Below, piece by piece: positions 43,871-63,287 of a stretch of DNA of 64,000 nt; within the stretch, counting starts at the first letter, position 1, and each line of letters begins with the position of its first letter. Position numbers and translations under genes: made by a program. The notes beneath the pieces were generated by a model. It searched no databases and was not told the DNA's origin. It saw only the letters and a program-made list of their open reading frames with translations. Source of the stretch: Candidatus Daviesbacteria bacterium (GTDB taxonomy: Bacteria > Patescibacteriota > Microgenomatia > Daviesbacterales > UBA10151); NCBI GenBank assembly GCA_027451625.1, contig DAIDIY010000048.1:26917-90916 (forward strand), in the 5' to 3' direction.

Positions 43871-44179
43871 ATGCAAGCCGCAGCAGGAATCGAGGATTTA
43901 CAAGCTTTAATTCAAAGAATTCTAGGATTAGTAGTAATTGGAGCATTCTTAGTTCTCTTATTCCTCTTCCTTTCAGCTGGATTCAAATATTTAACTTCAG
44001 GAGGAGAACCCAAAGGAGTTCAGTCAGCCCATAACACATATACATGGGCATTAATAGGTATCGCCCTTTTACTAATCGTATTTGTAGCCTTACGGTTAAT
44101 TTCTTCCTTTACCGGAGTAGATGTTACCAAGTTTTGTTTAGGTTTCCCTGGCTTGGAGAGTACTACTTCATGCTTTTAA
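43871..44179 (+). CDS. VirB2/TrbC-like pilin-fold protein
   Basis: LVVIGAFLVLLFLFLSAGFKYLTSGGEPKGVQSAHNTYTWALIGIALLLIVFVAL. Confidence 0.5.
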   Translation: MQAAAGIEDLQALIQRILGLVVIGAFLVLLFLFLSAGFKYLTSGGEPKGVQSAHNTYTWALIGIALLLIVFVALRLISSFTGVDVTKFCLGFPGLESTTSCF

Positions 44180-45058: not shown

Positions 45059-46792
45059 ATGCTTTCTGCCCGAGTATTAATTCTTTTATTCCTAACATTT
45101 ATATATTTAGTATTTACCAAAAATATTTATGCTGTCTCTCCTATCCCAACTCCGACAGATGATATAGCTCCAGGATCTATAATATTTAATAATTTTTCTC
45201 AAGATGCTTCAAAATATACGGTTCCTCCAACCCCAACACCGAATAGTACTTCAAGTTCTACCAACTCTGTTCCTGCTACATCTCAAAATTGGGGAGCAGC
45301 GCAACAAGCTCCTTTTACTCTAGACAATATGATGGGCGGAACTATTTGTTTCTTAGGAGGATTTGATCCATACGGCGCATGTCCAGTACAAAATGGTCCT
45401 TTAGTAAATGGACGAATTCAAGTTATGCTTTATAATCAAATTCCTGGAGATGGTGCTATTGGAGCTGCCAATAACTTAATGATCTCTTTATATAATCATC
45501 CTCCGACCTCAACCTCTTATTATTTAGCAAACTTGGGTAATTCAATCGGCATTACGAATACAGCTTATGCTGCATCTGGACCTGATCAAGGTTCTGGTTC
45601 GAGCCTAATTGTTCCTGTTTATAAAATATGGACATTCACCAGAAATATGGCTTACGTATTGATTATTTTTATAATTATAGCTGTTGGATTTATGATTATG
45701 TTCAGAAGCAAGATAAACCCGCAAACTACAATATCTATACAGTCAGCGATACCACGAATAGTAATAAGCTTGGCACTTATCACTTTCAGCTATTTCATTG
45801 CATCTTTATTAATTGACATATCTTTTTTTGGTGTTCAAATAATAGCTCAACTTTTTCTTCAAGCTCAGAATCAAGCAGGCGCTAATAATGCTTTTGATGT
45901 GAATAGTGTAGCTAACAATTCTAACATATTTCAATTATTGTCGATCGCTCAATCTCAGAGCTGGAATGTGGGTGAGATTATGACAGCTATCTGGAATGTA
46001 ACTTTAAATGCAGCCGGAAATAATTTTGCACAGATCGGTCATACAGGGAACATCGCTGGAGCAATAGGTTCAATTGTCACTGGATTAATTTTAGGAGTCG
46101 GAGGGTTAATAGGAGGAACTTTGGGAGGAATACTTATACCTCTTATACTTATGATAGTATTTTTTATTCAGACATTCAGACTTTTATGGAGCCTCCTTAA
46201 TGCATACATTACTATTCTTATATACACAGTGATTGGCCCGTTCCTAATTCTATATTCTGCTATTCCTGGGAAAGGAGGAGTTTTGACAAACTGGTGGAAA
46301 ACCATTTTAGGAAATTCGCTAATTTTTCCAGCTGTTATAGCCGTATTTTTATTTTCCGGTGTCATTCTAGGAACGCCTTCTACTGATTGGAATGGTGCTC
46401 GTCCTCCACTTTTGAATTTTGACAGCGGAGAGATATTAAGACTGGTAATCTCATACGGACTTCTTATCGGTCTACCTGCTATTCCCGGGATGGTCAAAGA
46501 ATTACTAGGTATTAAAGATATTCAAGGTATCCCTGGAGCAGCTATGGCTGGAGCTATGGCTGGGGTTGGAGTAGTTCAAGCGGGAGTCAATCTAACACAA
46601 ATTCCAGCTACTATTCAACAACGAAGACTTGCATGGAGTAGATACAACGCTGGAGTCGATAACGCTCCCGCTCCAAGAACTAGAACTGGTGCGACAGGTA
46701 GATATGCATTTATAAGGAATCTTCCATCCAACATTGTTGACTTGTTCGGTGGACAAGGTAATGGAACTGGTGGTGGCGGTGCGTCACACTAA
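45059..46792 (+). CDS. VirB6/TrbL-like polytopic membrane protein (candidate T4SS channel component)
   Basis: Signal peptide, ~150-aa extracellular segment, then at least six TM helices (aa 190-470), then a Gly-rich tail. Size and topology resemble VirB6/TrbL. No sequence motif, so assignment is by architecture and context. Confidence 0.4.
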   Translation: MLSARVLILLFLTFIYLVFTKNIYAVSPIPTPTDDIAPGSIIFNNFSQDASKYTVPPTPTPNSTSSSTNSVPATSQNWGAAQQAPFTLDNMMGGTICFLGGFDPYGACPVQNGPLVNGRIQVMLYNQIPGDGAIGAANNLMISLYNHPPTSTSYYLANLGNSIGITNTAYAASGPDQGSGSSLIVPVYKIWTFTRNMAYVLIIFIIIAVGFMIMFRSKINPQTTISIQSAIPRIVISLALITFSYFIASLLIDISFFGVQIIAQLFLQAQNQAGANNAFDVNSVANNSNIFQLLSIAQSQSWNVGEIMTAIWNVTLNAAGNNFAQIGHTGNIAGAIGSIVTGLILGVGGLIGGTLGGILIPLILMIVFFIQTFRLLWSLLNAYITILIYTVIGPFLILYSAIPGKGGVLTNWWKTILGNSLIFPAVIAVFLFSGVILGTPSTDWNGARPPLLNFDSGEILRLVISYGLLIGLPAIPGMVKELLGIKDIQGIPGAAMAGAMAGVGVVQAGVNLTQIPATIQQRRLAWSRYNAGVDNAPAPRTRTGATGRYAFIRNLPSNIVDLFGGQGNGTGGGGASH

Positions 46793-49255: not shown

Positions 49256-50629
49256 TTATCTAAATATTTTTTCCATACGTTCTTTTATTTTTACCATTCT
49301 AGCTGCTTCATCATATCTGGTTTGGCATTCTCTACAAATATTGCATTGTGCAACTTCTACACTTTTTTTTCCACAGCCATTAGTACAATCTCCAATTCTC
49401 CATACAAGCTCCGGATGAGAGATGTCTACCACATCATACACAGACCCTCCATTAATAAATGGTAAAATGTTTCGTCTCTCTAGACCAGAGTAATTAGTGA
49501 AAGATCGTCCTTTACTTAATAACTGTCTCTGTCCCCAATCTCCACAAAAATCACCATTAGAGCCGCTGTAAACCATTAATTCCGCTCCAATAAAAGATTC
49601 TTGATACCTTCTTCCTCCTAAGAGCTCTACCTCTCTGTTTTTTTCCAGCCAGTACATAGAAAGAGCTTCTTTAGTTGCGTTAATATATTCTTGACGGACT
49701 TTTGCCTGAAGTTCATCTGGGCTCTGACCGGATTCTATTCGTGACAAAATCCATTCAGCAACAGATGGAGCTGCAAATTCTTTTATTAGCTGATGTAATC
49801 TTTTATCTTGTACAGCTTGAATTGTATCTGCTGACAAGTTAAATATTTTGTTATCCTTTCCTGCTTCGTTTTTTGCCTCACCTAATAGCCTCCAGACTTC
49901 GCCGACGTTAAAATCGTATTTCGTTTTTGCAATTGTGGTCATAGATCTATCAAGGTCAGGTTTAATCTCCGATTCTTTATCTATAAAAAACTCAGTCCCG
50001 ACTTTCTTAAGGAAGATATTAAACGCATCCCTCTGCAAATCCATTTTGAAATCATATACCACCATTCTTCGGGCTTCTCCTTCTCCGTAAATTTTTGCCA
50101 TATAGGCATATCCATAGCTACCGTTATACTTTTGGATAAGAGGGTCTTCCCAATCTTCAGCTTTTAAACTCCCCCAAAACAGCACATTCTCATCTTGGCT
50201 GTTTAGAAACTGATTTCTAACTTCTGTCATTGCTGTCCGGTCCAAACTTCTTCTCCAATCAGAAAATGTACTTAAAACATCTTTTTCTAAAAACAAATAC
50301 TCTGGAGCAGTCATGTACGGTTCTGTTGTTTGTGAATAGCGTGCCTTGATATATGTATGTTGAGGTGGAGTCAATTGAAGTCTTACTCTCGATTCAGTAT
50401 CAAAAATAAAATTACCGTTCTCCTTTTCAGAAGATATTTTTTCAGTTATTAAACCTACCCCATCATTTATAAGAGATGTTCTAACTACATTTCTAGCTCC
50501 GTTTGAACCCAGCTTCTGAACAGCTTCTTGATATAAATGATAGTATCTACTGACGTCAAAGACTCTCAGGTCTGAAGTTGATGTATAAGTGTGTTGAAAA
50601 TCAGCTAAAGATGATAAAGTTCGTTCCAT
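49256..50629 (-). CDS. hypothetical protein with C-terminal Cys4 zinc-ribbon
   Basis: 457 aa; C-terminal CTNGCGKK...CNICRECQ (CxxxC...CxxC). Co-directional with the 770-aa gene. Confidence 0.4.
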   Translation of the reverse strand: MERTLSSLADFQHTYTSTSDLRVFDVSRYYHLYQEAVQKLGSNGARNVVRTSLINDGVGLITEKISSEKENGNFIFDTESRVRLQLTPPQHTYIKARYSQTTEPYMTAPEYLFLEKDVLSTFSDWRRSLDRTAMTEVRNQFLNSQDENVLFWGSLKAEDWEDPLIQKYNGSYGYAYMAKIYGEGEARRMVVYDFKMDLQRDAFNIFLKKVGTEFFIDKESEIKPDLDRSMTTIAKTKYDFNVGEVWRLLGEAKNEAGKDNKIFNLSADTIQAVQDKRLHQLIKEFAAPSVAEWILSRIESGQSPDELQAKVRQEYINATKEALSMYWLEKNREVELLGGRRYQESFIGAELMVYSGSNGDFCGDWGQRQLLSKGRSFTNYSGLERRNILPFINGGSVYDVVDISHPELVWRIGDCTNGCGKKSVEVAQCNICRECQTRYDEAARMVKIKERMEKIFR

Positions 50630-50988: not shown

Positions 50989-52146
50989 ATGGATGCACAT
51001 CCTGTCCCACAAAATGTGACTTCTTTTGAGTTCCACCTGGTTGGAGATATGACTCTAAAGCAATTTGGATATCTTGCAACGGGGTTAATTATTGCCTATA
51101 TCACATTCTTATTTTTTTTTAATAACCTTCCGTATGTAGCAACTCCAATTATTGCTATCTCTGCTGGATTAGGAGCAGCTTTTGCCTTTTTGCCCATCTA
51201 TAATCGTCCTTTAGATCACTGGGTAAACGTCTTCTTTCATGCTATATTCTCTCCTACCCAGAGAGCATGGAGAACCCCAACAGACAAACCAATACCAAAT
51301 GACCTAAGAGCTGAATTAATTAAAAACCGCCTTCATCTTTTTATGCAAAGCACTGCCATACCCCAATCCTCCTATGGAACACCATTTCCTTCTAACTCTG
51401 CATCTATTAATTTAAGACGTCTACCTATAAATACCCACCCAAACTTAAATTTTCCTTCACACCCTAACTCTTCTAATAAACCTGAACCATCTCAAAATCA
51501 AACCTTAAAACCGACTAAAACAGGCTCGACAACCTCTAAGATGCCTACCCCTGAGGAACTAAACCACTTAGTAGAAATGGCCCGACAGACCCAAATGCTT
51601 CAGAGTAAAACTCTCGAATTGGAAAAAGAGCTCTCCCAACTTAAGTCTTTGCTTGCATTACAATCTACAAAAGGATCTTCTCCTGTTCAGCTGTCACAAA
51701 CAGGATCAGTAGTTCAGCAAGCTGGATCACAATTAAATCAATTGCAAAAACAGGCCATACAAGTTGCACAGCAAAAAGTTCAACCTCCAATCCCTAACCC
51801 AACTCCTCCTGCTAAACCCCCTAAAGTCGTGATAATAGAGCCTCCAAAACAAACAAAAACAGTAATTGCCTTAACATCGCTACCCAATATTATTAACGGT
51901 ATTATTACAGATACAGTCGGAAATTATCTCGAAAATGTAATTGTCATAATTCATAATCAGGATAACCTACCAGTCAGGGCTTTAAAAACCAATAAACTTG
52001 GCCAGTTCACAGGAGCCACGCCGTTACCTTCTGGTGTTTACACTATTACAATGGAAAAGGAAGGATTTGATTTTGACACATTACAAATAACTCTAAACAA
52101 CCAGATTGTTCCACCAATTAAAGTTACGGCAAAAAAAGGAGGTTAA
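50989..52146 (+). CDS. VirB10/TrbI-like architecture: TM anchor, Pro-rich linker, coiled-coil, C-terminal beta domain
   Basis: Two TM helices (aa 35-75); Pro-rich aa 100-290; coiled-coil (LEKELSQLKSLLALQ); C-terminal domain GIITDTVGNYLENVIVIIHN...GVYTITMEKEGF resembling a carboxypeptidase-regulatory or Cna-B-like beta-sandwich. Directly precedes VirB4. Confidence 0.35.
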   Translation: MDAHPVPQNVTSFEFHLVGDMTLKQFGYLATGLIIAYITFLFFFNNLPYVATPIIAISAGLGAAFAFLPIYNRPLDHWVNVFFHAIFSPTQRAWRTPTDKPIPNDLRAELIKNRLHLFMQSTAIPQSSYGTPFPSNSASINLRRLPINTHPNLNFPSHPNSSNKPEPSQNQTLKPTKTGSTTSKMPTPEELNHLVEMARQTQMLQSKTLELEKELSQLKSLLALQSTKGSSPVQLSQTGSVVQQAGSQLNQLQKQAIQVAQQKVQPPIPNPTPPAKPPKVVIIEPPKQTKTVIALTSLPNIINGIITDTVGNYLENVIVIIHNQDNLPVRALKTNKLGQFTGATPLPSGVYTITMEKEGFDFDTLQITLNNQIVPPIKVTAKKGG

Positions 52147-53136
52147 ATGTTCTCTACTCAACAAGCTATATTAATCGAGGACATTAAAGATGATCTAATA
52201 TTTTTAAAAGATGGCGGCGCATCCTTAATTCTCAATACTACTGCTGTTAATTTCGGTTTACTTTTTGAGACAGAGCAAATGGCTATTATCGATGCTTTCG
52301 CTCAACTGTTAAACTCTCTTTCATTCCCAATACAAATTGTTATTCGCTCAAAAAAAATGGATATCTCTTCATACCTTAGCACACTTGAGAGAGCTTTAAA
52401 GTCACAAACTAACCAACTCCTCGCTCAACTAACTCTAGATTACCGGAATTTTGTTGAAGGATTAATTAAGGAAAACGATGTACTCGATAAACAATTCTAT
52501 GTTTGCCTTTATGTTTCAGCAATCGAAATGGGAATTTTACCTAAACAACAAACTGATAGGAGTAGAAAAGCTAAAGCAATGCTAGAAACAAGAAGAGATT
52601 TAATATTAAGGCAACTGAACAGAATTGGGCTCAAAGCGAGACAGCTTGCAACAGCTGAGTTAATTAATCTCTTTTATGATATCTATAACCCAGATAATTG
52701 GTACTTCTCCACTGATGACGAAAGTGTAGTCGATCCTGAAGCAGAAAGAAAAGAAAACGAATTACAAACGTCAACTCCCAACATACCTTCACAACTCAAA
52801 CGAATTGTTCCTCAAACACCTATTGTTCAACACACACTTCAAAGTAACCTCCAATTAAGACCGATACCTCAACTCGTTCAACATCAATCACATCTAGAAC
52901 CTAGATCTCCACTACAACAAAATTCTACCCCTCTTTCTCAAAACAACCCACAAGCTACAAATATATTTCAAAAACCTCAAATTCCATTTCAAATACCAGT
53001 TAATGGGCCTACAGTAAATCCTTTACCTCCAATAAAACAAAATCCACCAAATAGCCAACAGCCATCGCAGAACAATTCGATAAATAGGGCCTCTCCGTTT
53101 ATAGTTGAAGAACTAAAAGATGACTTTGGATCCTAA
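52147..53136 (+). CDS. VirB4/TrbE/CagE N-terminal domain protein (first part of a split VirB4) with Gln/Pro-rich tail
   Basis: N-terminus AILIEDIKDDLIFLKDGGASLILNTTAVNFGLLFETEQMAIIDAFAQLLNSLSFPIQIVIRS matches the VirB4/CagE_TrbE_VirB N-domain. Residues ~230-329 are Q/P-rich. Overlaps the next ORF by 17 nt in another frame. Confidence 0.6.
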   Translation: MFSTQQAILIEDIKDDLIFLKDGGASLILNTTAVNFGLLFETEQMAIIDAFAQLLNSLSFPIQIVIRSKKMDISSYLSTLERALKSQTNQLLAQLTLDYRNFVEGLIKENDVLDKQFYVCLYVSAIEMGILPKQQTDRSRKAKAMLETRRDLILRQLNRIGLKARQLATAELINLFYDIYNPDNWYFSTDDESVVDPEAERKENELQTSTPNIPSQLKRIVPQTPIVQHTLQSNLQLRPIPQLVQHQSHLEPRSPLQQNSTPLSQNNPQATNIFQKPQIPFQIPVNGPTVNPLPPIKQNPPNSQQPSQNNSINRASPFIVEELKDDFGS

Positions 53137-54850
53137 ACCTAAAATAGATCTTACATTGCAAGATGTCGTTGCCCCTGCTGAATGGGAGGTAGATTTTTCA
53201 CACCTACGGATCAATCAAACTCTTTTTAGAAGCTTTATAGTTACTTCATATCCAAGATTCGTTGATCCAAATTGGTTAGAACCACTAATTGCGTTTGACC
53301 ATTCACTTACCATTTCTATGTTTATTTATCCAACTAACTCCGCTGGTGTTATGGATGACTTAAAAAGAAAAATTGCAGAGATGGAGGCAACTCTCCAATC
53401 AGATTTAGATAGAGGCAGAGCTGTTGATCCGTCTGTTGAAGTTGCCTTAGAAGACGCAGAAGCTCTACAAGACCAATTGGCAAGAGGTACAGAGAGATTC
53501 TTTCAATATTCTTTGTATGTAACAGTACCTGCAAAAAATAAAACTGAACTTAATAACATATCACAGCTTGTAACATCAACTTTGAGAAGCATTTCAATTA
53601 CGGCATATCCATCTGTTTTGGAAATGGAAGATGGTTTCAAGTCAACTCTTCCAGTAGGAGAAGATATGCTATATGTTCCTCATAATATGGATACCACTTC
53701 TTTAGCCACTACGTTTCCATTTACTTCCTCTGAATTAACATCGCCCCAAGGAGTAGTTTATGGAATTAATGAGCATAATGATTCCTTAATAATCTTTGAT
53801 AGATTCAGCCAAGAAAATGCTAATTCAACAATTCTTGCTACCTCTGGAGCTGGAAAATCGTATCTGGTCAAACTAGAAACACTGCGATCTCTAATGTTAG
53901 GTACAGAGGTCATTGTTATTGATCCTGAGCGTGAATACTTAAAACTTGCTCAAGCTGTCGGAGGAGATTATATAAATTTCTCCACGAACTCTCCCATAAA
54001 GATTAATCCATTTGATCTTCCAGAAGTCGCAGACCAAGGAGAAAACGAACTGGGGAGAAAGATACTGTCATTAAGTGGCTTCCTAAAACTAGTATTAGGA
54101 GAACTTACCCCCCAAGAGTCAGCCATTTTAGATCGAGCTTTAAATACTACATATAGAATTAAAGGTATTACTGAAGATACTAGAACACAAATGGGAAAAA
54201 AGGATACTGAAATGCCACTAATGGAAGATCTATATAAAGTACTTTTGGGCATGGAGGATCAAGTATCAACAGGACTGGCGGTCCGACTTGAAAGATTCAT
54301 CAGAGGATCGCTTGCGGGAATTTTCTCTGCTCCATCAAATTTAAGAATTTCCAACCTACTGACAATCTTTTCTGTCCGTGATTTACCAGAACAACTTCGG
54401 CCTCTAGCAATGCATCTAATTTTAGATTACATTTGGACTAAGATTAGGAAGGAACAAAAAAAGCGGATATTGGTTGTTGATGAAGCATGGTATCTGATGA
54501 AATATCCTGACTCTGCCAGCTTTCTAGTTGAAATGGTAAAAAGGGCTAGAAAGTATTTTCTTGGAGTAACTACAATCAGCCAGGATGTTGAAGATTTCTT
54601 AGAAAGAGATCATGGAAAAGAGGTTATCTCAAACTCATCAATGCAAGTTTTACTTAAACAAGCGCCTGCATCAATTGAAAGGATAGGTGAAACATTCAAT
54701 CTCTCTCAAGGAGAAAAAAGGCTATTACTTTCATCTGGAGTCGGACAGGGCTTATTTTTTGCTGGTAATACTCATGTCGCGATGAGAGTAGTTGCTTCTC
54801 CAAAGGAACACCAATTAGTTACAACTAATCCCACTGAATATCAAAACTAA
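53120..54850 (+). CDS. virB4: VirB4-family type IV secretion ATPase (C-terminal catalytic part)
   Basis: Walker A ILATSGAGKSYLVK; Walker B RILVVDEAWYLM; downstream GVTTISQDVEDF; upstream FRSFIVTSYPRFVDPNWL. Confidence 0.8.
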   Translation: MTLDPKPKIDLTLQDVVAPAEWEVDFSHLRINQTLFRSFIVTSYPRFVDPNWLEPLIAFDHSLTISMFIYPTNSAGVMDDLKRKIAEMEATLQSDLDRGRAVDPSVEVALEDAEALQDQLARGTERFFQYSLYVTVPAKNKTELNNISQLVTSTLRSISITAYPSVLEMEDGFKSTLPVGEDMLYVPHNMDTTSLATTFPFTSSELTSPQGVVYGINEHNDSLIIFDRFSQENANSTILATSGAGKSYLVKLETLRSLMLGTEVIVIDPEREYLKLAQAVGGDYINFSTNSPIKINPFDLPEVADQGENELGRKILSLSGFLKLVLGELTPQESAILDRALNTTYRIKGITEDTRTQMGKKDTEMPLMEDLYKVLLGMEDQVSTGLAVRLERFIRGSLAGIFSAPSNLRISNLLTIFSVRDLPEQLRPLAMHLILDYIWTKIRKEQKKRILVVDEAWYLMKYPDSASFLVEMVKRARKYFLGVTTISQDVEDFLERDHGKEVISNSSMQVLLKQAPASIERIGETFNLSQGEKRLLLSSGVGQGLFFAGNTHVAMRVVASPKEHQLVTTNPTEYQN

Positions 54851-54855
54851 ACAAC

Positions 54856-57387
54856 ATGGCTCAAGATACGGAACAAAAGCAAGATCTTTCAGACTTAGAG
54901 CAAGCCTTAAGTTGTGTAAACCCCTTTCGTCGTAAAACTTTACAAGTACTCTACAAATCACATCCTAAAACATATCAAAAGATAATTGAACAAACAATTA
55001 AGATTTTAATTAAAAATGAACCTTCTTTAAAAAATATTTTTGAATATTTACATAAACAGGAAAATGGTAATGAAATCTTTTTAAATCATCTTTACAAAGA
55101 TAATTTCTACTACACAAATCTTTGGAAAAAAGCTCATCCCGACCTGACTAGTCAGGGGGTTATAAATAATAAAATTGAAGAAATAAATAAAACAGCCATC
55201 GCAACTCGAGAACAAAAACAAAAGGTTTTGTCCGAAAAAAGTGTTTTTGAACCTCTCAATATCCAAAATGAGGTAAAAAATACAGATACAAAGAAAAATG
55301 TTCAGACAGAAAAAGAAGAAACATCGAAGGCCAGCCGACCTCCATCTCAACCCGAAAAAATTTTGTCTGGATCTAAAAAAACAACTCTTCCTAATGCTGC
55401 TTTCCCTCCTTATTCAGCAGCTCCTATAACTAACCCCGTTAACCAAACCTCAGATTCCCTTATAGACTCATCAAAAATTTCTCCCTCGGAAGATAAGATA
55501 TCCAGAGAAGCTAATATTAATATAGTCCCAATAGACCTTCAGGAAATAACCGTTCCAAAGGTTGCCCCATTAATTTCTTCTACTAAAAAAGTTGCTGGGT
55601 CCTCAGTTACCAAAAACATTCTTTCCAATGCAGCTATCTTAATAAAAAAAACAGTTGGTAAGATTTTGATCCCTGAAAACATTATTTATTTGCCCGCTGT
55701 TTTAGCCAGCGCTGCTGTAGGTGGAGCAGCTGCACCTATTATAGGTATCTCTCCAGCTGTTGGTATGGCCCTTGGCGGAGGTGCAGGCGCTACTATTATT
55801 CCGCAAGGTACTAAACGAGGTTGGTTTAACAACACCCTTAATATGGCTTTAAACTTTATACCGGGACCGGAGGGGACAGCAATTAATCTGGGAAGAAGAG
55901 TCTTAGGTAGCAGACTCGGAGTCAAGCAAGTTGCTCAAAAAGGTCTGATTGCATTTTTTAGTACTCCTCTTGGATGGGGAACTATTGGAGTTATTATTTT
56001 TTTATTTATCGTTATCTTAATTACCCAACAGAGCTCTGCCATGCTTCCTCCTTACCAGGTAGAAGGAATTTCTGAAGTCTCTGTGGCAAATTCCACACCA
56101 GGAGCTTCACTATCTCCAACAAACACTCCTGGCAGCGGAGAATCTCCAATTGGTTATGCTATACCCATAAGAGATACATCTGTTATTCCAAATACAAGTA
56201 ACACAATCGCACAAGCTGTTCAAAGTCTTTGTGGTGGTCAAGGGTATGGTGAGCCTCACTTGGAACTTTGGCAAGACCTCATTCAAGCAAGTGTTGATAA
56301 GGGTTGGAATCCATCATTTGTATCTGCGCTATGGATAGAAGAAACAGGTGCTCAATGTCCTGCTGTATATGACGATGCAGTAGGGTGTGGAAATGATCCA
56401 AATAAAAGTTCTCCTGATGCAAAAAAACGATTATTTAATTATGCTCTACCTTGTTTAGATAGTTTTTTTACTAATTGGTTTCCGAGAGGTTATAGTAATG
56501 ATCAGTTTCAAAAATTTATGTGTATTTATGCTGATGGCCCTAGCGGGTATCCGGCATGTAACTCCTCAAAATATACTGGGTTTATTTCTAGAGTAAGTTA
56601 TTGGTATACAAAACTATCTGGAAATAATTCTAGTATATCTCCTACCCCCACAACAGAATCTATCCCAAACGATATTACAGGGAAAATAAACACTATAAAT
56701 CAGCAATTTCATATCGATTTTAGTAAGTTTGATTTTCAGAGTGCGGGGTTAACTACATCTCAATATAACCAAGATCTTCAATGGGCCTGGGCGGATTTAA
56801 ATCTTGCAAAACAAGTTGCTCCTAAATTTGATACACTTCTTGGAAATGTACAGATAGAACTAGGATCCCTGCCGTATAATTACAGGAGCGGCCAAACTGT
56901 TAACTTCTCTAAAAACTACTATTTCTTCACTACAGAAAATTTTTTCAAACAGAATTTCATTCACGAGTTAACCCATGTTATAAACGATGGCCAACCTGGA
57001 AAATATGGAGTCGATTTATGGAACCAAGCCATCACAAAAGAAGGATACATTAGTCAATACTCTTCCGCTGCCACCCCTGGAGATGTTTCTCAAATTTGTA
57101 CATATAGTTATCCATTAGCAGATGAAGAACAATATATGTCAGCTGGAAACACAAACCCAAACGATACAATCCTTCAATACATTGATGCAAGAGACGACGA
57201 GGATTTCTCAGAATCTGTAGCTTATTATATTACCAGCTTTTATGATCCTCCTATTGTAGAAATGCCTTATGGTAACAGCGCTACAAGTCCTTCCTGTGCA
57301 GGTGTAGAAAATTCTACCAATCCGTTTACTGGTGGAGGGCACCCCTACCATACAGAATTTATAAAAAAGATATTAGGCGGGCAGTAA
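54856..57387 (+). CDS. large multi-domain protein: Gly-rich TM segment, lysozyme/transglycosylase-like region and HExxH metallopeptidase-like motif (candidate T4SS-associated cell-wall hydrolase or effector)
   Basis: 843 aa. Central Gly/Ala-rich hydrophobic block (AAVGGAAAPIIGISPAVGMALGGGAGA), then ITQQ. GQGYGEPHLELWQDLIQASVDKGWNPSFVSALWIEETG resembles lysozyme/SLT-type active-site regions. FIHELTHVINDG carries HExxH. Confidence 0.35.
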   Translation: MAQDTEQKQDLSDLEQALSCVNPFRRKTLQVLYKSHPKTYQKIIEQTIKILIKNEPSLKNIFEYLHKQENGNEIFLNHLYKDNFYYTNLWKKAHPDLTSQGVINNKIEEINKTAIATREQKQKVLSEKSVFEPLNIQNEVKNTDTKKNVQTEKEETSKASRPPSQPEKILSGSKKTTLPNAAFPPYSAAPITNPVNQTSDSLIDSSKISPSEDKISREANINIVPIDLQEITVPKVAPLISSTKKVAGSSVTKNILSNAAILIKKTVGKILIPENIIYLPAVLASAAVGGAAAPIIGISPAVGMALGGGAGATIIPQGTKRGWFNNTLNMALNFIPGPEGTAINLGRRVLGSRLGVKQVAQKGLIAFFSTPLGWGTIGVIIFLFIVILITQQSSAMLPPYQVEGISEVSVANSTPGASLSPTNTPGSGESPIGYAIPIRDTSVIPNTSNTIAQAVQSLCGGQGYGEPHLELWQDLIQASVDKGWNPSFVSALWIEETGAQCPAVYDDAVGCGNDPNKSSPDAKKRLFNYALPCLDSFFTNWFPRGYSNDQFQKFMCIYADGPSGYPACNSSKYTGFISRVSYWYTKLSGNNSSISPTPTTESIPNDITGKINTINQQFHIDFSKFDFQSAGLTTSQYNQDLQWAWADLNLAKQVAPKFDTLLGNVQIELGSLPYNYRSGQTVNFSKNYYFFTTENFFKQNFIHELTHVINDGQPGKYGVDLWNQAITKEGYISQYSSAATPGDVSQICTYSYPLADEEQYMSAGNTNPNDTILQYIDARDDEDFSESVAYYITSFYDPPIVEMPYGNSATSPSCAGVENSTNPFTGGGHPYHTEFIKKILGGQ

Positions 57388-57409: not shown

Positions 57410-57856
57410 ATGAAGTATTTAGATTTAAAAATAACAGCTTCATTAATAATAGCTGTTGTTGTTTTAGGAATAATTTATATTAGCTTTATACACAAAAAGG
57501 TAAACATAGAAAAACCGATTTCTTTCAATATCACTCCCAACATAGTTTCCACAGATCCTAACCCGCTAGATAATGCAGTCATATTTTCAAAGGAATCTTT
57601 TAGTATTACTTTCAACTTACCTATTCAAAATGTAGGTGAGTTAAAACATACAATTACACCTAAAATGGATTATTCATTAAAACTCTCTGATGATCGAAAA
57701 ACTGCAATTTTTACACCCAACAAACCTTTACCTATAGGAAAAGAGTATACTCTTCAAATCACAGGAGACACAAAGATGGATGGACCTTCTGGAATGATTC
57801 TTTTAGATCAAACCTTAATTTACCATATTAGAACAATTCCATATAATGGAGTTTAA
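57410..57856 (+). CDS. small membrane-anchored protein with Ig-like beta domain (hypothetical)
   Basis: N-terminal TM; the remainder is beta-rich. Last gene of the plus-strand block before dnaN. Confidence 0.35.
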   Translation: MKYLDLKITASLIIAVVVLGIIYISFIHKKVNIEKPISFNITPNIVSTDPNPLDNAVIFSKESFSITFNLPIQNVGELKHTITPKMDYSLKLSDDRKTAIFTPNKPLPIGKEYTLQITGDTKMDGPSGMILLDQTLIYHIRTIPYNGV

Positions 57857-57866
57857 TTGTTAACGA

Positions 57867-58967
57867 TTAGCTTAAGTTAATCGGCATAATAATATATTCA
57901 AGACTTGAGTCCTGCAAAGGCCTAACCAAAACAGCAGACAAGGAGCCAGAAAGCTGCATCTCTACTTCCGAATCAGGGAATGCGCCTAAGACATCCATCA
58001 AAAATTTTGCATTAAAAGCAATCTGAATCTCTTCTCCTAATACTTTGGCTGAAATTTCTTTTTTTTGGCCACCCAATTCTTTAGTCTCAGAGGTTAAGGT
58101 AATACCTTGGTTTCCCACAAAAAACTTTATAACATTAGCCTCTCCTCGAGCAAAAACAGAAGCCAACTTGACAGCCTTTAGAAGCTCATTTCTATCAAAA
58201 TTTACTGTTGTTTTTTTGTCAGTAGGTATAATTTTCTCCCAGGAAGGAAATTGTCCTTCAATCAAGCGTGATGAAAGTTTGGTATTACCAAAGCTAAAAA
58301 TTATTTGATTCTGATTATCAGAGGTTGAGATATTAACTTGCAGAGGTTTCTCTTCCGAAATTAATCTCAAGATTTCTTCTAAAGTTCTTCTTGGCACAAG
58401 AGCCTTAAAAGAGGAATCTTCATCAATCTCTACAACCTTGTGTGCTAATCTATACCCGTCAGTGGCCACAAACTGAAGTTTTTTATCTTTTATTTCAGTC
58501 AACACCCCAGTCAGAACTGGCCTTCCTTCATCCAAAGCCGAAGCAAAACTAACCTGAGGCAGACATGAATGGAGTGTATCTGCTTTCACTAGCGCAGTCT
58601 CTTTACCGCTTAAAGGAATCGCAGGAAACTCAGACGAGTCAATTCCATTAATAGTTGAAGAGAATGTTGGAGTTTTTATTTCCATTAAATTTGAATTAGC
58701 TGTAAATTCTATCTTTTCTCCTTGTAAATTAGAAACTAAATCCACAAGAGTACGTGCTGGCACACTAACAGCTCCTTCCTCGATAACTTCAGTCTTTATT
58801 GTTCTTACAACACCTACCTCTAAGTTTGTCGCTGAAACTTTCAGAGAGCCACTCTCTGCCTCTATAAGTATATTTCCCAGCACAGGAAGTTGAGCTTTCA
58901 TCCCCACAGATCTTGATGCTGAGTTTAATATGGGCATTATGTCTTGTTGAAGAATCGAAAATTTCAT
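57867..58967 (-). CDS. dnaN: DNA polymerase III beta sliding clamp
   Basis: N-terminus MKFSILQQDIMPILNSASRSVG...QLPVLGNILIEA and three-domain length (366 aa); downstream of dnaA. Confidence 0.9.
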   Translation of the reverse strand: MKFSILQQDIMPILNSASRSVGMKAQLPVLGNILIEAESGSLKVSATNLEVGVVRTIKTEVIEEGAVSVPARTLVDLVSNLQGEKIEFTANSNLMEIKTPTFSSTINGIDSSEFPAIPLSGKETALVKADTLHSCLPQVSFASALDEGRPVLTGVLTEIKDKKLQFVATDGYRLAHKVVEIDEDSSFKALVPRRTLEEILRLISEEKPLQVNISTSDNQNQIIFSFGNTKLSSRLIEGQFPSWEKIIPTDKKTTVNFDRNELLKAVKLASVFARGEANVIKFFVGNQGITLTSETKELGGQKKEISAKVLGEEIQIAFNAKFLMDVLGAFPDSEVEMQLSGSLSAVLVRPLQDSSLEYIIMPINLS

Positions 58968-58975
58968 TTTTTAAA

Positions 58976-59431
58976 TCATTGTTCTTTTCGTTGTGCGGAT
59001 ACAAACTTCTGAATCTCTTCCTCTCTAACTCTTATCAGACGAAAACTAACTCTTCCGCTTTGTATTAGGTTTTTAATGTGTTTTTCTTCTTCTGTCAAGA
59101 GAGCAGAATCTCCTGATTTAACCTCAATAAAATCTATCCTATCGTTATTTTTAATACCAATGAAGTCAATCGGCCAACCTAAAGGAACAATTCGATCGTA
59201 GTCGTAGCGCAGTTCAGCATAGGTTAGAAGTTCGGCCATTTTTCCTTTTTGTGGATTAATTGAACCTTGAATTGTTTGCAAAATCTTTACTGGAAGTTCC
59301 TGAACTCCACGATAAAGATCTATTAAATCTGTGGGGATATCTCCTCTTGGTTTTTGATGAACCCTTCCTAAAAGATATGCAATAAGTAAAGCAGATGCTC
59401 CAAGAAGACAATAAACTATTATTGGATTCAT
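58976..59431 (-). CDS. membrane-anchored PD-(D/E)xK-like nuclease-fold protein (YraN/Hjc-like), hypothetical
   Basis: N-terminal TM; core GWPIDFIGIKNNDRIDFIEVKSGDSALLTEEEK shows a D...(D/E)VK arrangement typical of the restriction-endonuclease-like fold. Confidence 0.35.
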   Translation of the reverse strand: MNPIIVYCLLGASALLIAYLLGRVHQKPRGDIPTDLIDLYRGVQELPVKILQTIQGSINPQKGKMAELLTYAELRYDYDRIVPLGWPIDFIGIKNNDRIDFIEVKSGDSALLTEEEKHIKNLIQSGRVSFRLIRVREEEIQKFVSAQRKEQ

Positions 59432-59439
59432 TGATTTGA

Positions 59440-59702
59440 TTATAACATGTGTTATTAAGTTATCCCCTATGGTTTGTTCTATTTTTTATTTATATATTAA
59501 ACAATAGTCGTATTAATAAGCGGGGTTGATATGTGGAATTTATAAAGTGAGCAGGCTTAAAATATGTGTGGATATCTTTTTAAAGCTAACTTAAATGTTT
59601 ATAGATTTTTTGATCTTGGTTTTTGGGTTTGATTAGTGTGTATAAAACAGGACCTTTTGTGGATAAGTTTGTGGATAAGTTGATAAGTATTTGTGGATAG
59701 TT
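59440..59702. promoter_or_regulatory. oriC candidate: DnaA-box cluster plus AT-rich unwinding region
   Basis: Perfect TGTGGATAA at 59658-59666 and 59670-59678; TGTGGATAG at 59692-59700; TGTGGATAT at 59567-59575; TGTGGAATT near 59532. AT-rich tract 59585-59640. Confidence 0.7.
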
Positions 59703-61022
59703 TTATCCTTGAGTAATAATTTGGCGAATCTCTATAATCATCCTTTGAAGTTCTCGATCTCTGTTAATAGTTGATCTCATCTTTTCCACTCCATGAAGAA
59801 TTGTGGTATGATCGCGTCCTCCTAAGATATCCCCTATTCTTTCATATGGAAGTTTACACTCTTCATATAAAAAGTACATTACAATTTGTCTGGGGATAAC
59901 CAGATCTCTTTTTCGCCTCGGACCGATTAGATCGCTTGTCTTAACATGGAAGTATTGATTAACACCTGTTATTACTTTTTTATAATCGGGAGCCTTTGCC
60001 GTATGAGAAGGTGTCCCGAGGTATTTATGAACAACGTCTTCTGATAATATTTGGTTCGTTAGTTTTGCTGCCTGCACTATCTGAATAAGCTTACCTTCTA
60101 ACTCCCTTGCGTTTGTATCCTGAGACTGCGCTATTATGGTGAGTATTTCATCCGAAATGTGCTCATTTCTTTCCATGCATTTTGCTCTTAAAATAGCAAC
60201 TCTAGTATCGAAGTCGGGATTTTGAATATCAACCATCAGTCCACCTTGAAATCTAGATCTTAACCTAGACTCCAAATCCTTCATTTGGTCCGGAGTTCTA
60301 TCGGAGGTTAAAATTATTTGTGAATTTTTAGTATGCAGCTCATTAAAGGTGTGGAAAAACTCCTCTTGAGTAGAATCCCTTCCTGAAATAAATTGAATAT
60401 CGTCTACTAAAAAAAGGTCGCAATTTCGATACTTTGCTCTAAATTCGCTGGTTTTTTTATTTTGTATAGATTGAATAAAGTCATTTGTATACTTTTCCGA
60501 TGTGCAGTAGATAATTTTTAAACCAGGATTTTTTTTAAATAATTCATTGCCGATGGCTTGCATAAGATGAGTTTTCCCGACGCCTGTTCCACCATAGATA
60601 AAAAGAGGGTTATAAGTTGTCCCTGGGGTCTGAACGACAGCTCTGGCCGCAGCGAAGGCTAAATTATTTGAGAGTCCGACTACAAAATTTTCTAAATTAT
60701 ACTTTGGATTTAATCCTACAGTAGGAACCTTGACCGTTGGTGTGGTAAACTCAAATTCAACTTCTGTTTCTTTAAGAGATTGTTTTACTTCGATAGAGAT
60801 TTCAGCCTCATCAGGGTAGACTTCTTTAAATGTATTACTTAATAGTGTAGGATACTTAGCCAGAATATTTTGCTTGATGAATGAAGATTCGACGTAAACA
60901 ATAAAGTGGTTTTTATCTTTTTGCTCTAAAGCCGTTTTCCCAAACCATATCCTAAAGTTAGCTTCAGATAACTGTGGGCGTATTCTTTCTAGAACGTTTT
61001 TCCATAGTTTTTGAGAGTCCAT
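59703..61022 (-). CDS. dnaA: chromosomal replication initiator protein
   Basis: Walker A GGTGVGKTHLMQA; Walker B LFLVDDIQFI; C-terminal DNA-binding signature RRKRDLVIPRQIVMYFLYE...GGRDHTTILHGVEKM. Confidence 0.95.
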   Translation of the reverse strand: MDSQKLWKNVLERIRPQLSEANFRIWFGKTALEQKDKNHFIVYVESSFIKQNILAKYPTLLSNTFKEVYPDEAEISIEVKQSLKETEVEFEFTTPTVKVPTVGLNPKYNLENFVVGLSNNLAFAAARAVVQTPGTTYNPLFIYGGTGVGKTHLMQAIGNELFKKNPGLKIIYCTSEKYTNDFIQSIQNKKTSEFRAKYRNCDLFLVDDIQFISGRDSTQEEFFHTFNELHTKNSQIILTSDRTPDQMKDLESRLRSRFQGGLMVDIQNPDFDTRVAILRAKCMERNEHISDEILTIIAQSQDTNARELEGKLIQIVQAAKLTNQILSEDVVHKYLGTPSHTAKAPDYKKVITGVNQYFHVKTSDLIGPRRKRDLVIPRQIVMYFLYEECKLPYERIGDILGGRDHTTILHGVEKMRSTINRDRELQRMIIEIRQIITQG

Positions 61023-61041
61023 CCAGCAATATTAGTGTAAA

Positions 61042-61050
61042 AGTTATCCA
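61042..61050 (+). promoter_or_regulatory. consensus DnaA box (TTATCCACA) in the dnaA upstream/rpmH divergent intergenic region
   Basis: Exact 9-mer match, 20 nt upstream of the dnaA start on the opposite strand. Confidence 0.6.
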
Positions 61051-61246
61051 CATTAAATAGGGGTAAAATACTACATAATAGGTCAGGACTTGTTACGGTA
61101 GAGTTTTAAAGAGAATTAGTTAGTATTAACATGCAAAAGCTATTATGGGAAGGTCTTTGTAAATTTACTTTTGGAAGCATCTGTTTTGACAGATATCAAC
61201 AGAGTCATTGAATTTTAGTTTAAAAATTAGTAAACTTCTTTCTACA

Positions 61247-61390
61247 ATGGCTAAAACTAAAAGGACCTACCAACCAAAGAAAATGAAACGTTTGCGGAAA
61301 CACGGGTTTTTAGAACGAAATTCTACTAGGGATGGTCGAAAAGTAATGAAGAGGCGAATTGCTAAAGGGCGAAGTAGAATTACTATTTAA
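61247..61390 (+). CDS. rpmH: 50S ribosomal protein L34
   Basis: [47 protein letters not shown] matches L34. Start taken at the internal Met. Confidence 0.85.
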
Positions 61391-61752
61391 TGCTATCAAA
61401 AGAAAAACGCCTTAATCTGAACTTAAGCTTCCGCTGGACAGCATCTGGAGAAAAAATATCACTTCCTTTTGTAAAGATATTTTATAGAACAGGTCATAAT
61501 AGTAACCCCCTTATAGGAGTATCTCTTTCAAAAACAAATTTTAAAACAGCCATTGAGCGTAATAGAGCGAAAAGGCTTTTAAGTGAAGCGTTTAACGAGC
61601 TTTACCCTAAAATAGAGCCTCATCTTAATATAGTAGCTATTCCCTATACTCAAGTGTTAAAATTATCTTCAAAAGAAATTCTGAAGGTTTTAAAAGATAA
61701 TTTTAATAGAAAAAGTTTATTGAGGATGTATAACGAAAGACCTTTTAAATAA
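61390..61752 (+). CDS. rnpA: ribonuclease P protein component
   Basis: RLNLNLSFRW...NPLIGVSLSK...AIERNRAKRLLSEAF (RNR motif); canonical position after rpmH. Confidence 0.8.
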   Translation: MLSKEKRLNLNLSFRWTASGEKISLPFVKIFYRTGHNSNPLIGVSLSKTNFKTAIERNRAKRLLSEAFNELYPKIEPHLNIVAIPYTQVLKLSSKEILKVLKDNFNRKSLLRMYNERPFK

Positions 61753-61758
61753 ATTGAA

Positions 61759-61959
61759 ATGAAAAGCTTAGTTGTTTTTGTTATTAATTTTTACCAATTT
61801 TTCCTTTCTTTTGATAGAGGGATGTTATCTGTTTTGGCTCCTGGTGGAGCTTGTAAATATTCCCCAACATGTTCTGAATATACAAAACAGATGATTCTAA
61901 AGTATGGTATCATAAAAGGCCTTATCCTTGGAGGAAAGAGAATTCTGTCATGTCGATAA
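61759..61959 (+). CDS. yidD: membrane protein insertion efficiency factor YidD
   Basis: CKYSPTCSEYTKQMILKYGIIKG matches YidD (CxFxPSCSxY...HG). Confidence 0.8.
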   Translation: MKSLVVFVINFYQFFLSFDRGMLSVLAPGGACKYSPTCSEYTKQMILKYGIIKGLILGGKRILSCR

Positions 61960-62753
61960 TAAGCCTAATAGGAGCACTTTTTAATTTAGTTTTTTTTGGG
62001 CCAATTGTTAATCTCTTGGTTTTAATTTTGCGTACGTTAGAGATCCTACATATTCCAGGAGCATTAGGTTTTTCAATAATTATTTTATCTGTATTAATTA
62101 GAATGTTGGTTTGGCCGTTTATGTCTTCTCAGCTTAAGGCTGCAAGAAAGATGGCGGAGCTTAAACCGCATTTGGATGAGCTAAAAAGAAAGCACGGTAG
62201 TGACAAGCAGGCTTTTGCTTCTGCTCAAATGGAGCTATATAAAGAGCATGGGGTCAATCCAGCAGCGGGTTGTTTGCCATCACTAGTCCAAATGCCTGTA
62301 CTTTGGGCGCTATATAGATCTATATTTGCTTTTTTTAGCGGACAGTCAGGATTGAGTCAGATAAATTCAATTTTATATATTCCAGCCTGGCACCTTAAAT
62401 CTGTGCCTAACCTCACATTTTTTGGCTTGAATTTAGCTACCAAACCTTCAGATTTTATGCATTTAGGATATCTTCTTCTTTTAATACCTTTAGTTACCGC
62501 TGGACTGCAGTTTATTCAGAGTAGAATGATGACTCCAAAACCAATTCAAGCTTATCCGAAGGACACTAAAAAGGAAGAAAAAGAGAAGGAATCTCTAGAT
62601 GAATCAATGGCGGCGATGCAGACCCAAATGATGTATATGATGCCTCTCATGATAGGTTATTTTGCATTTCAGTTTCCAATCGGATTATCAATCTATTGGA
62701 ATACAGTAACTATCTTTAGTATCCTCCAGCAAAAAATTCTATTTAAGGATTGA
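61950..62753 (+). CDS. yidC: membrane protein insertase YidC/Oxa1 family (short form)
   Basis: GFSIIILSVLIRMLVWPF...QLKAARKMAELKPHLDELKRKHG...NPAAGCLPSLVQMPVLWALY is conserved YidC core TM2-TM3. Confidence 0.85.
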   Translation: MSIISLIGALFNLVFFGPIVNLLVLILRTLEILHIPGALGFSIIILSVLIRMLVWPFMSSQLKAARKMAELKPHLDELKRKHGSDKQAFASAQMELYKEHGVNPAAGCLPSLVQMPVLWALYRSIFAFFSGQSGLSQINSILYIPAWHLKSVPNLTFFGLNLATKPSDFMHLGYLLLLIPLVTAGLQFIQSRMMTPKPIQAYPKDTKKEEKEKESLDESMAAMQTQMMYMMPLMIGYFAFQFPIGLSIYWNTVTIFSILQQKILFKD

Positions 62754-62789
62754 CTCTAACTCTATCTTCTTTTATACTTAGCCAAGCTT

Positions 62790-63287
62790 ATGGAATCACA
62801 AGTCTCAGAAATCTTAGAAAATATATTAGGAATGCTAGCTTTAGAGGGTAATTTTGAGGTTGTAGAAGGACCAGAAGAGGTTACGGTTACGATAGAAACT
62901 GCTGATGCGGGGAGGCTGATAGGCTTTAAAGGAGAGACACTTGACTCCCTCCAGCTGCTTGCTAATCAAATTTTAGGTAAAAAATCAGAAAAATTTAAAA
63001 GGGTGGTTATAGATGTTGCTGGATGGAGAAAAAACAAAGAAGGTGACTTAGAGAATAGGGCAAGATATTGGGCAGATGAAGTTAAGGAATCTAAAAAAGA
63101 GATTGAATTAGATCCGATGCCTGCATGGCAGAGAAGAATTGTACATATGGTGATTTCAGAGATAGGCGGAGTCGAAACGGAAAGTGTTGGTGAAGGTGCA
63201 GAAAGACATTTGATAATAAAGCCTACTGGAGGTTTGGTCAAGAGTGAGGAAGAAACCTCCACGGACGATCCTTCTTCTAAAGAATAA
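62790..63287 (+). CDS. jag: Jag/KhpB RNA-binding protein (KH plus R3H)
   Basis: KH-like GRLIGFKGETLDSLQLL and R3H MPAWQRRIVHMVISEIGGVETESVG; canonical position after yidC. Confidence 0.8.
   Translation: MESQVSEILENILGMLALEGNFEVVEGPEEVTVTIETADAGRLIGFKGETLDSLQLLANQILGKKSEKFKRVVIDVAGWRKNKEGDLENRARYWADEVKESKKEIELDPMPAWQRRIVHMVISEIGGVETESVGEGAERHLIIKPTGGLVKSEEETSTDDPSSKE

Follow-up and report, generated by a model that had tools for sequence, protein, structure and literature searches.

A putative membrane-anchored, two-domain wall hydrolase encoded directly after virB4 in a Candidatus Daviesbacteria type IV secretion locus

Introduction

How does a patescibacterium's type IV secretion system (T4SS) get across the cell wall? 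This question is raised by an 843-codon open reading frame (ORF) that directly follows virB4 in the T4SS cluster of a Candidatus Daviesbacteria genome (assembly GCA_027451625.1). The ORF (ATG to stop, positions 54856–57387, plus strand) lies in a stretch of 64,000 nucleotides with a G+C content of 35% (contig DAIDIY010000048.1, positions 26,917 to 90,916 of the forward strand; hereafter referred to as the window), and its ATG is found 5 nt past the VirB4 stop codon. Canonical homologues of the VirB1 hydrolase are mostly unlinked to virB4 in Patescibacteria (PMC12102498). In Candidatus Southlakia epibionticum, however, homologues of a peptidase and a lysozyme are situated directly downstream of virB4 and are essential (PMC12102498, citing PMC10633639). 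The same sources describe the T4SS of S. epibionticum as essential for epibiotic growth and the T4SS of Patescibacteria as devoid of a relaxase (PMC12102498, PMC10633639).

A preliminary description of the window had read the ORF as a multi-domain protein placed immediately after VirB4, with a Gly/Ala-rich membrane segment, a region resembling the active-site neighbourhood of a lysozyme or lytic transglycosylase, and an HExxH motif, and had proposed either a bifunctional cell-wall-breaching enzyme or a secreted toxin-like effector. The present analysis makes it highly probable that the T4SS operon here encodes an anchored enzyme with two domains outside the cytoplasm. It is probably the peptidoglycan-opening enzyme of a patescibacterial T4SS/pilus machine (i.e., the functional counterpart of PrgK, TraG of pIP501, CwlT and VirB1).

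Results

The position after virB4 in related loci

The locus was compared with 80 loci from GTDB genomes in which VirB4 is 60–77% identical to the window VirB4 ORF. Those that are informatively named stem nearly all from metagenome-assembled genomes of Candidatus Daviesbacteria, Gottesmanbacteria, Shapirobacteria, Microgenomates or 'Patescibacteria group' members. The ORF directly 3′ of VirB4 was taken as the slot protein of each locus, and 67 of these proteins were scanned against Pfam. Nearly all slot proteins are 450–1000 aa long, and their architecture consists of 250–500 N-terminal residues without a signal peptide, at least one hydrophobic segment and a C-terminal part of 200–500 aa. In the scanned proteins, Peptidase_M23 was found 15 times, SLT five times and CHAP three times, next to Amidase_3, Amidase_2, Peptidase_C39_2 and SLT_3 (two each). 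Since relatives carry M23, SLT, CHAP and amidase domains in this place, the slot was read as a peptidoglycan hydrolase position, predicted to encode a membrane-anchored enzyme of which the catalytic domains are exchanged between genomes.

The flanks of the slot are conserved among the 80 loci, with a PrgI-like gene in 75, a VirB4 N-terminal ORF in 77, a Big_5 gene in 37 and dnaN in 66 of them. In only seven of these loci could an ORF resembling the window protein be detected. Moreover, among the 39 Daviesbacteria-like loci, ectodomain similarity (E < 1e-5) was detected in only 41% of the pairs, with VirB4 being ca. 67–77% identical. The Big_5 gene is retained after the slot whatever the hydrolase cassette, also in the metagenomic contig L083, and the slot–Big_5 synteny recurs in the distant homologue P0005. 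The contigs of three further distant homologues (P0003, P0063 and P0142) were too short for an informative gene context.

Two conserved modules in the window protein

No meaningful match emerged when the 843-aa protein was searched against the PDB sequence set, NCBIfam and Pfam (the last up to E 10); the lone PDB hit, to aspartate aminotransferase (E 0.39), covered 27 residues and was due to chance. A word-indexed protein search with the full protein retrieved itself only, and the protein is the sole member of its own 90% identity cluster; with the domain B alignment (see below), the word-indexed search returned one further protein. HMMER, run exhaustively over 1.84 billion representatives, yielded 165 relatives (E <= 1e-3); together with local iterated hidden Markov model (HMM) searches in the loci, it revealed two independent conserved modules (referred to as domains A and B) behind a membrane anchor. 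As for the hydrolase domain anticipated in the preliminary description, none was found at the Pfam level, whereas family profiles and structure prediction did bring out putative ones.

An alignment of 149 full-length homologues to the ectodomain was dropped after an occupancy check revealed unrelated C-terminal domains stacked onto domain B. Trimmed alignments per domain were used instead, i.e., A5 for domain B (35 sequences) and A6 for domain A (46 sequences), and AlphaFold2 (AF2) models were run on trimmed segments of proteins from the exhaustive search.

Domain A, a lysozyme-like module

Domain A (aa 410–600; 56083–56655, plus strand), delimited by homologue alignment and modelling as a lysozyme-like, putative peptidoglycan glycosidase region, is where most of the 165 homologues match (aa ~410–600). 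The most conserved motif of this 165-member family, NPSFVSALWIEETGAQ (aa 485–500), coincides with the lysozyme-like neighbourhood noticed earlier. In alignment A6, N485, L492, W493, A499, G510, C511, L531, C533 and Y584 are invariant; E495 and E496 in W-I-E-E-T-G (codons at 56338–56343, plus strand) are nearly so, the sole exception being the first tandem copy in homologue P0017. The consensus of the domain reads GWNPAFVLALWIEE[TS]GAQG...LGC...C...WY. P0017 itself contains tandem domain A copies (aa 256–412 and 410–562), the first of which reads WIVASKA rather than WIEE[ST]GA and, without the Glu pair, is probably an inactive binding copy.

The AF2 model of domain A (pLDDT 76.6, pTM 0.73) consists entirely of helices, six in number, with the Glu pair situated at the C-terminal end of model helix 82–93. 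Its top structural neighbours (scores in brackets) were the GH73 glucosaminidase LytB (8.8), MltF (7.8) and a C. difficile endolysin glucosaminidase (7.7), followed by other lytic transglycosylases (Slt, MltC and MltE; 7.3–6.1), goose-type lysozyme (6.5) and FlgJ (6.4), and then by lysozyme-like chitinases and endolysins. In fact, the top 29 matches were lysozyme-superfamily or related glycoside hydrolases, bar one uncharacterised phage protein. Foldseek against the PDB ranked the same families on top, at non-significant values (best E 0.09, TM about 0.35–0.42). At the sequence level, a Pfam scan of the 46 domain A members gave no SLT match and one Glucosaminidase match (E 0.16), and PDB profile searches with domain A gave nothing relevant. 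An hhalign comparison of domain A with the Pfam-positive SLT regions of relatives was not significant either (E 0.44), and the sole segment aligned in it placed WIEETG on the SLT catalytic motif RVESP.

As modelled, domain A resembles GH73 (LytB, FlgJ, AtlE, Acp; PF01832) and GH23/g-type lysozyme (SLT, PF01464) in its all-helical lysozyme-like fold, in a helix-end Glu followed by Ser/Thr(-Gly) (cf. E-S-G in GH73 and E-S in SLT), and in an invariant Tyr near its C-terminus, but differs from both by a conserved Cys pair, by an L-G-C motif peculiar to it and by the lack of a significant sequence or profile match. We conclude that it is probably a divergent lysozyme-superfamily domain that is not assignable to GH23 or GH73. 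E496, followed by Thr/Ser-Gly, is proposed as the catalytic acid, and the modelled fold makes it likely that domain A is a wall glycosidase, be it a hydrolase or a lytic transglycosylase, a muramidase or a glucosaminidase.

Domain B, a gluzincin-like module

Domain B (aa 607–843; 56674–57384, plus strand) was delimited by alignment, model and profiles as a predicted gluzincin-fold metallopeptidase, and was matched by 34 representatives in the exhaustive scan. It holds the only HExxH motif of the protein, H703-E-L-T-H707 (56962–56976, plus strand), embedded in FIHELTHVINDG. One HExxH in 843 residues is estimated to occur by chance in ~2% of proteins (at typical His and Glu frequencies); the weight of the motif comes from its invariance in 35 of 35 homologous domains, and not from its mere occurrence. 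Besides H703, E704 and H707, alignment A5 shows W643, Y735, E782 and C814 to be invariant and L705, C748, D783 and Y790, among others, to be nearly invariant, the consensus being FKQxLIHELGHxI...EGYLTxY...C...DEDFAESVSYYIN...C...NP.

In the AF2 model (pLDDT 91.2, pTM 0.90), a small β-sheet (strands 66–85) precedes the HExxH helix (95–111), and E782 and E786 are borne by a later long helix (172–194). The modelled layout, with a β-sheet before the HExxH helix and a Glu on a later helix, is that of a gluzincin (clan MA(E)). The HExxH motif therefore lies on a helix of a globular domain, and the preliminary description's suggestion to look for a third zinc ligand downstream finds a candidate in the invariant E782 of E782-D-F-S-E786 (D-E-D-F-x-E motif; 57199–57213, plus strand), with H703 and H707 as the other proposed ligands and E704 as the proposed catalytic base.

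The closest structural neighbours of domain B were M34 enzymes. The list was headed by PPEP-3 (ATLF-like; 8.5), anthrax lethal factor (7.9) and PPEP-2 (7.8), followed by the lethal factor-like domains of edema factor (7.4) and Certhrax (7.2), a putative zinc peptidase of Bacteroides (4l7a; 7.1), and MtfA, M1 aminopeptidases and thermolysin (6.9–6.8), with botulinum light chains, Wss1 and the metallopeptidase of the type VI secretion (T6SS) effector VgrG2b among the lower matches. Profile searches pointed to the WLM domain of Wss1 (6e-4 to 1e-3) and lethal factor (0.05), and HMMER placed E782 on E735 of anthrax lethal factor. Peptidase_Mx1 (PF15890) reached 15 bits on the window protein against a cut-off of 25.6 bits and was sub-threshold in 10 of the 35 members; among the same 35, eCIS_core (8), ATLF (4), M91 (4) and WLM (3) also scored below threshold. 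ATLF (PF07737) had no match in the window protein and matched 4 of 35 relatives at E >= 0.039, while L035 scored E 0.017 (15.3 bits, cut-off 27.4 bits). These zincin profile matches are weak yet mutually consistent.

Compared with the M34/ATLF zincins (lethal factor, PPEP-1/2/3) and Mx1, domain B has in common a helix-borne HExxH with the Glu ligand on the next helix, an E-x-F-[AS]-E motif (EDFSE in the window protein, EFFAE in lethal factor) and a conserved Tyr between the HExxH and Glu motifs. It differs from them by an identity of 12–18% and by its fusion to a putative wall glycosidase. The spacing from this Tyr to the Glu is also distinct, amounting to 47 residues in the window protein and about 22 in its relatives, against 7 in lethal factor and PPEP-1. 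The window protein contains an insertion of ~25 residues (aa ~750–776) between C748 and the DEDF motif, which is shared only by its closest relative, P0003. Since no curated family threshold was reached, domain B was assigned to an unclassified family of gluzincins, to which M34 and Mx1 come closest. Conservation and model together make it very likely that it is an active zinc peptidase.

Proteins of 868–1032 aa (P0142 on L084 and P0063 on L082) also carry domain B, there directly behind a signal or TM segment at the N-terminus. At least one of these two lies outside a visible T4SS context, as P0142 is located beside a sigma-70 gene, indicating that this zincin family is not confined to the virB4 slot. 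In two loci, domain B forms a separate small ORF downstream of the post-VirB4 gene (L020:12010–12753, 247 aa; L036:9190–9729, 179 aa), reflecting either split genes or assembly frameshifts.

Pairing of the domains

In 17 representatives, domain A is followed by domain B. Across all 34 domain B representatives, domain B comes after a TM segment and either domain A (the same 17) or another region of ~200 aa, and the latter proved to be Pfam SLT in 5 of the 10 scanned, i.e., in P0098, P0123, P0080 and P0135 (E 2e-6 to 2e-5) and in P0044 (E 0.0033). SLT also precedes domain B in L021 and L025. Judged from these sequences, domain B appears to be habitually fused behind a wall glycosidase (A or SLT), which corresponds to the pairing of glycosidase and peptidase in PrgK, TraG and CwlT; SLT combined with CHAP has been described for monoderm T4SS hydrolases (PMC12102498).

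The N-terminal region and membrane topology

The N-terminal region (aa 1–269; 54856–55662, plus strand) is hydrophilic in composition, Lys/Glu/Gln-rich and without a signal peptide, with Ser/Pro/Thr/Lys-rich low complexity at aa ~130–260. When aa 1–410 were used in four pieces for iterated searches against the ORFs of related loci, no match was obtained, nor did the window protein score with an HMM built from the N-terminal parts of its nearest relatives. No homologue was found for aa 1–240, and no match of the exhaustive search begins before aa ~240.

Two hydrophobic stretches follow, in line with the membrane segment of the preliminary description. The first (aa 270–320; 55663–55815, plus strand) is Gly/Ala-rich and flanked on both sides by K/R-rich sequence, which suggests a membrane hairpin or a peripheral, membrane-associated stretch rather than a single span. 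The second (aa 363–399; 55942–56052, plus strand) is the main TM segment, with a mean hydropathy of up to 2.6 and an equivalent single TM segment in relatives. Based on hydropathy and the positive-inside rule, aa 230–269 (7 K/R, 1 D/E) and the basic loop at aa 321–362 (6 K/R, 1 D/E; 55816–55941, plus strand) were read as cytoplasmic, and aa 400–440 (1 K/R, 4 D/E) as outside. The sequence around TM 363–399 is K/R-rich before and K/R-free after this segment, so that we infer an N-in/C-out topology with aa 1–269 in the cytoplasm. A Ser/Thr/Pro/Gly-rich stretch, the presumed start of an extracellular linker (56053–56082, plus strand; model pLDDT <50 at model residues 11–20), then runs on to ~aa 430 within the domain A homology region, where model confidence is low. 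The conserved Cys pairs of both ectodomains (C511/C533 and C748/C814) would suit an extracytoplasmic location.

Genomic setting

The cluster is ordered as five pilin genes, a VirB6 candidate, a PrgI/VirB3-like gene, two VirB4 ORFs, the 843-aa ORF, Big_5 and dnaN. VirB4 (52147–54850, plus strand) is divided over an N-terminal domain ORF (52147–53136; 329 aa) and an ATPase ORF (53120–54850; 576 aa; NCBIfam conju_CD1110, 5e-113; Pfam TraG P-loop, 8e-24), which are in different frames and overlap by 17 nt. A sequencing frameshift was rejected as the cause, because a separate VirB4 N-terminal ORF overlapping or abutting the ATPase ORF is kept in 77 of the 80 related Microgenomates loci, indicating a genuine two-gene VirB4. 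In the window, the N-terminal ORF ends in a Pro/Gln-rich tail of ~100 aa.

Just upstream (50989–52146, plus strand), the PrgI/VirB3-like protein (385 aa) combines an N-terminal PrgI TM domain, a Pro/Gln-rich linker and a C-terminal CarboxypepD_reg-like β-sandwich. The CarboxypepD_reg match (E 1.4e-7) is just below the cut-off, and such an extracellular appendage would be unusual for a VirB3; the PrgI-like protein is conserved in 75 loci. The array of five T4SS_pilin genes (PF18895, VirB2-like) occupies 40098–44179 (plus strand), and the product of its first gene (40098–42041; 647 aa) has the pilin domain confined to its C-terminal end (aa 571–635). The 577-aa polytopic membrane protein encoded at 45059–46792, upstream of virB4, has a signal-like N-terminus, is conserved upstream of virB4 in 16 loci and had no Pfam or NCBIfam match; it is a candidate divergent VirB6, a subunit reported as scarce in Microgenomatia by a 2025 survey (PMC12102498).

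Between this gene and the PrgI-like gene, two minus-strand ORFs are found (46798–49110, 770 aa; 49256–50629, 457 aa), the second of which terminates in CxxC...CxxC. Neither had a Pfam or NCBIfam match, homologues were present in two and one of the 80 related loci, respectively, and the pair has the appearance of a variable insertion. A 612-aa protein encoded directly upstream of the pilin array (38193–40031, minus strand) carries a SpoIID domain (lytic-transglycosylase family, E 3.8e-16) and a weak PcsB coiled-coil match, and represents a second wall-remodelling enzyme near the T4SS cluster.

Directly 3′ of the hydrolase slot lies the gene for the Big_5 (bacterial Ig-like) protein (148 aa; 57410–57856, plus strand), in the place where prgL (VirB8-like) follows prgK in pCF10. 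Beyond it, the replication-origin gene set adjoins the cluster (57867–63287), with dnaN, a Holliday-junction-resolvase-like endonuclease gene and dnaA on the minus strand, and then, on the plus strand, rnpA, yidC and a gene for a Jag-like KH/R3H protein. A T4SS close to the origin has been reported for Patescibacteria, with which this adjacency is in agreement. The locus layout as a whole matches the published description of their T4SS as related to the monoderm MPF-FATA class, without relaxase, with VirB2-like pilin arrays and near dnaA/dnaN (PMC12102498).

Discussion

The 843-aa protein has its nearest counterparts in the T4SS-encoded hydrolases PrgK (pCF10), TraG (pIP501), CwlT (ICEBs1) and TcpG (pCW3). 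As in those systems, the gene is part of the T4SS cluster, here directly after the PrgI-like and VirB4 genes, and the product is predicted to combine a membrane anchor with extracytoplasmic catalytic domains, i.e., a lysozyme-superfamily glycosidase and a peptidase. The gene order prgI-prgJ-prgK of pCF10 is mirrored by PrgI-like, VirB4 and the present ORF, and PrgK, with 871 aa, is close in size to the product of this ORF. In contrast to the known hydrolases, however, SLT, GH73, CHAP, NlpC/P60 and M23 were not detectable in the sequence with Pfam, the role of peptidase would fall to an HExxH gluzincin and not to a Cys peptidase or M23, and the anchor is located 270–400 aa from the N-terminus, behind an orphan region. 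The surrounding system also differs in having VirB2-like pilins and no relaxase (PMC12102498). The peptidase and lysozyme after virB4 in Candidatus Southlakia epibionticum ML1 belong to the same T4SS type and share position and activity pair, a likeness drawn from their published description, whereas the window protein fuses both putative activities in one membrane-anchored polypeptide and uses unclassified families.

A peptidoglycan-opening enzyme of this kind could work as follows. The gene is tightly coupled to the PrgI-like and VirB4 genes and co-transcribed with them, and its product would be made together with theirs. Charge distribution and hydropathy suggest that the orphan N-terminal region of ~270 aa would stay in the cytoplasm, where it might, speculatively, touch the VirB4 ATPase, while the Gly/Ala-rich hairpin and the one strong TM helix would anchor the protein N-in/C-out. 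Fold and conservation are consistent with two catalytic domains presented outside the membrane on the Ser/Thr/Pro linker. Domain A would cut glycan strands by means of E496, the helix-end Glu of W-I-E-E-[ST]-G, perhaps aided by E495. By analogy with other T4SS hydrolases, in which the partner is a CHAP, NlpC/P60 or M23 domain, domain B would cleave stem peptides or cross-bridges, with a predicted zinc ion on H703, H707 and E782 and with E704 as base. Together they would open a local gap in the cell's own wall, in which the channel and the VirB2-like pilus could assemble. The ectodomain would be one of the many combinations of cassettes that related genomes swap at this locus. That the target is the own cell wall rather than that of a host is what we favour on balance.

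Several points weigh against this reading. Fast turnover of cassettes among close relatives would not be expected if the enzyme acted on the cell's own, conserved wall, and known T4SS hydrolases have a short N-terminal anchor instead of a cytoplasmic extension of 270 aa. The modelled similarity of domain A is one of fold, with Foldseek and hhalign short of significance, and no curated family model reaches its threshold on either domain. The nearest structural relatives of domain B (PPEPs and lethal factor) cut proteins and not peptidoglycan. To our knowledge, moreover, no HExxH zincin is an established peptidase partner of a T4SS wall hydrolase.

Alternatively, domain B could be a protein-directed protease, processing or shedding VirB2-like pilins, surface adhesins or S-layer proteins, with domain A cutting or docking onto the wall. 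Its closest folds (PPEP-3, PPEP-2 and anthrax lethal factor) are protein endopeptidases, and Pro-Pro endopeptidases release LPXTG adhesins. Likewise, none of the families matched below threshold (Peptidase_Mx1, eCIS_core, ATLF, M91 and WLM) is a peptidoglycan enzyme, five pilin genes lie in the same cluster, and domain B occurs outside the T4SS context as well (P0142, with its sigma-70 neighbour). We nonetheless place this option on the unlikely side, as domain B nearly always stands behind a glycosidase-type domain, where known T4SS hydrolases have their wall peptidase; by that analogy, an action of domain B on peptidoglycan peptides rather than on proteins is given slightly less than an even chance. 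The cassette turnover, in turn, would fit domains of the same kind that act on the wall or surface of a host bacterium, with the cassette matched to host wall chemistry. Cassettes differ although VirB4 remains 67–77% identical (similar proteins in 7 of 80 loci, shared ectodomains in 41% of the Daviesbacteria pairs), the flexible Ser/Thr/Pro linker could lend reach, and the relaxase-less T4SS is essential for epibiotic growth of S. epibionticum (PMC12102498, PMC10633639). On the other hand, a strong TM helix tethers the enzyme to its own membrane with no evidence of release, quick domain shuffling is equally typical of ordinary autolysins and T4SS hydrolases, and no host is known for this organism, so that a host-directed wall breach appears unlikely. 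Doubtful to a further degree is the more elaborate idea that host range is set by the post-virB4 gene of Microgenomates as a hypervariable slot for cassettes of wall enzymes, which, the present lysozyme-like domain and M34-like zincin included, would be aimed at the host wall or surface proteins where epibiont and host touch, with cassettes exchanged to track host wall chemistry and with the N-terminal region coupling to the split VirB4 ATPase.

The two remaining options are far less probable. A secreted or injected toxin-like T4SS effector, as entertained in the preliminary description, could call on the fold likeness of domain B to lethal factor, botulinum light chains and the VgrG2b metallopeptidase, and on the possibility that relaxase-less T4SSs export proteins (PMC12102498). 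It is very improbable, however, as the protein has no N-terminal signal peptide and carries its catalytic domains behind a TM anchor, the slot of relatives holds housekeeping-type wall hydrolase domains, and no gene resembling an immunity gene is evident; Big_5, the gene downstream, is kept regardless of cassette type. The least probable option is a structural T4SS subunit (a VirB6/VirB8-like scaffold) with dead enzyme-like domains: the long orphan N-terminal region and membrane segments beside VirB4 would suit it, as would the P0017 copy of domain A without the Glu pair, but E495/E496, H703, E704, H707 and E782 are retained here and in nearly all relatives, and a separate polytopic VirB6 candidate is encoded at 45059–46792. 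The bifunctional wall-breaching enzyme that the preliminary description had put forward is thus supported by the slot position and the hydrolase domains of relatives, and by the predicted HExxH domain.

That Patescibacteria may rely on non-canonical glycosidases and peptidases whose genes directly follow virB4 is already known, having been noted for S. epibionticum (PMC12102498, citing PMC10633639). New, in our assessment, are the recognition of the slot as a conserved, mosaic hydrolase position in Microgenomates; the delimitation of two putative catalytic families that are absent from curated libraries, with their candidate catalytic residues; the HExxH gluzincin in place of a CHAP, NlpC/P60 or M23 partner; and the long, presumably cytoplasmic orphan extension ahead of the anchor.

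A large part of bacterial diversity belongs to the Patescibacteria (the candidate phyla radiation, CPR), and in the only species in which this has been tested so far, epibiotic growth depends on their T4SS as an essential system. With VirB1-type hydrolases mostly unlinked to virB4, the way in which this machine crosses the wall had been left open. In Daviesbacteria and related Microgenomates, the slot after virB4 would encode the wall hydrolase, often of families that are missed by profile libraries. The lysozyme-like family (most of at least 165 cluster representatives) and the M34/Mx1-like zincin family (34 representatives) provide annotation targets and testable mutants, and the mosaic swapping of cassettes in one constant place may offer a handle on whether the own wall or that of a host is the target.

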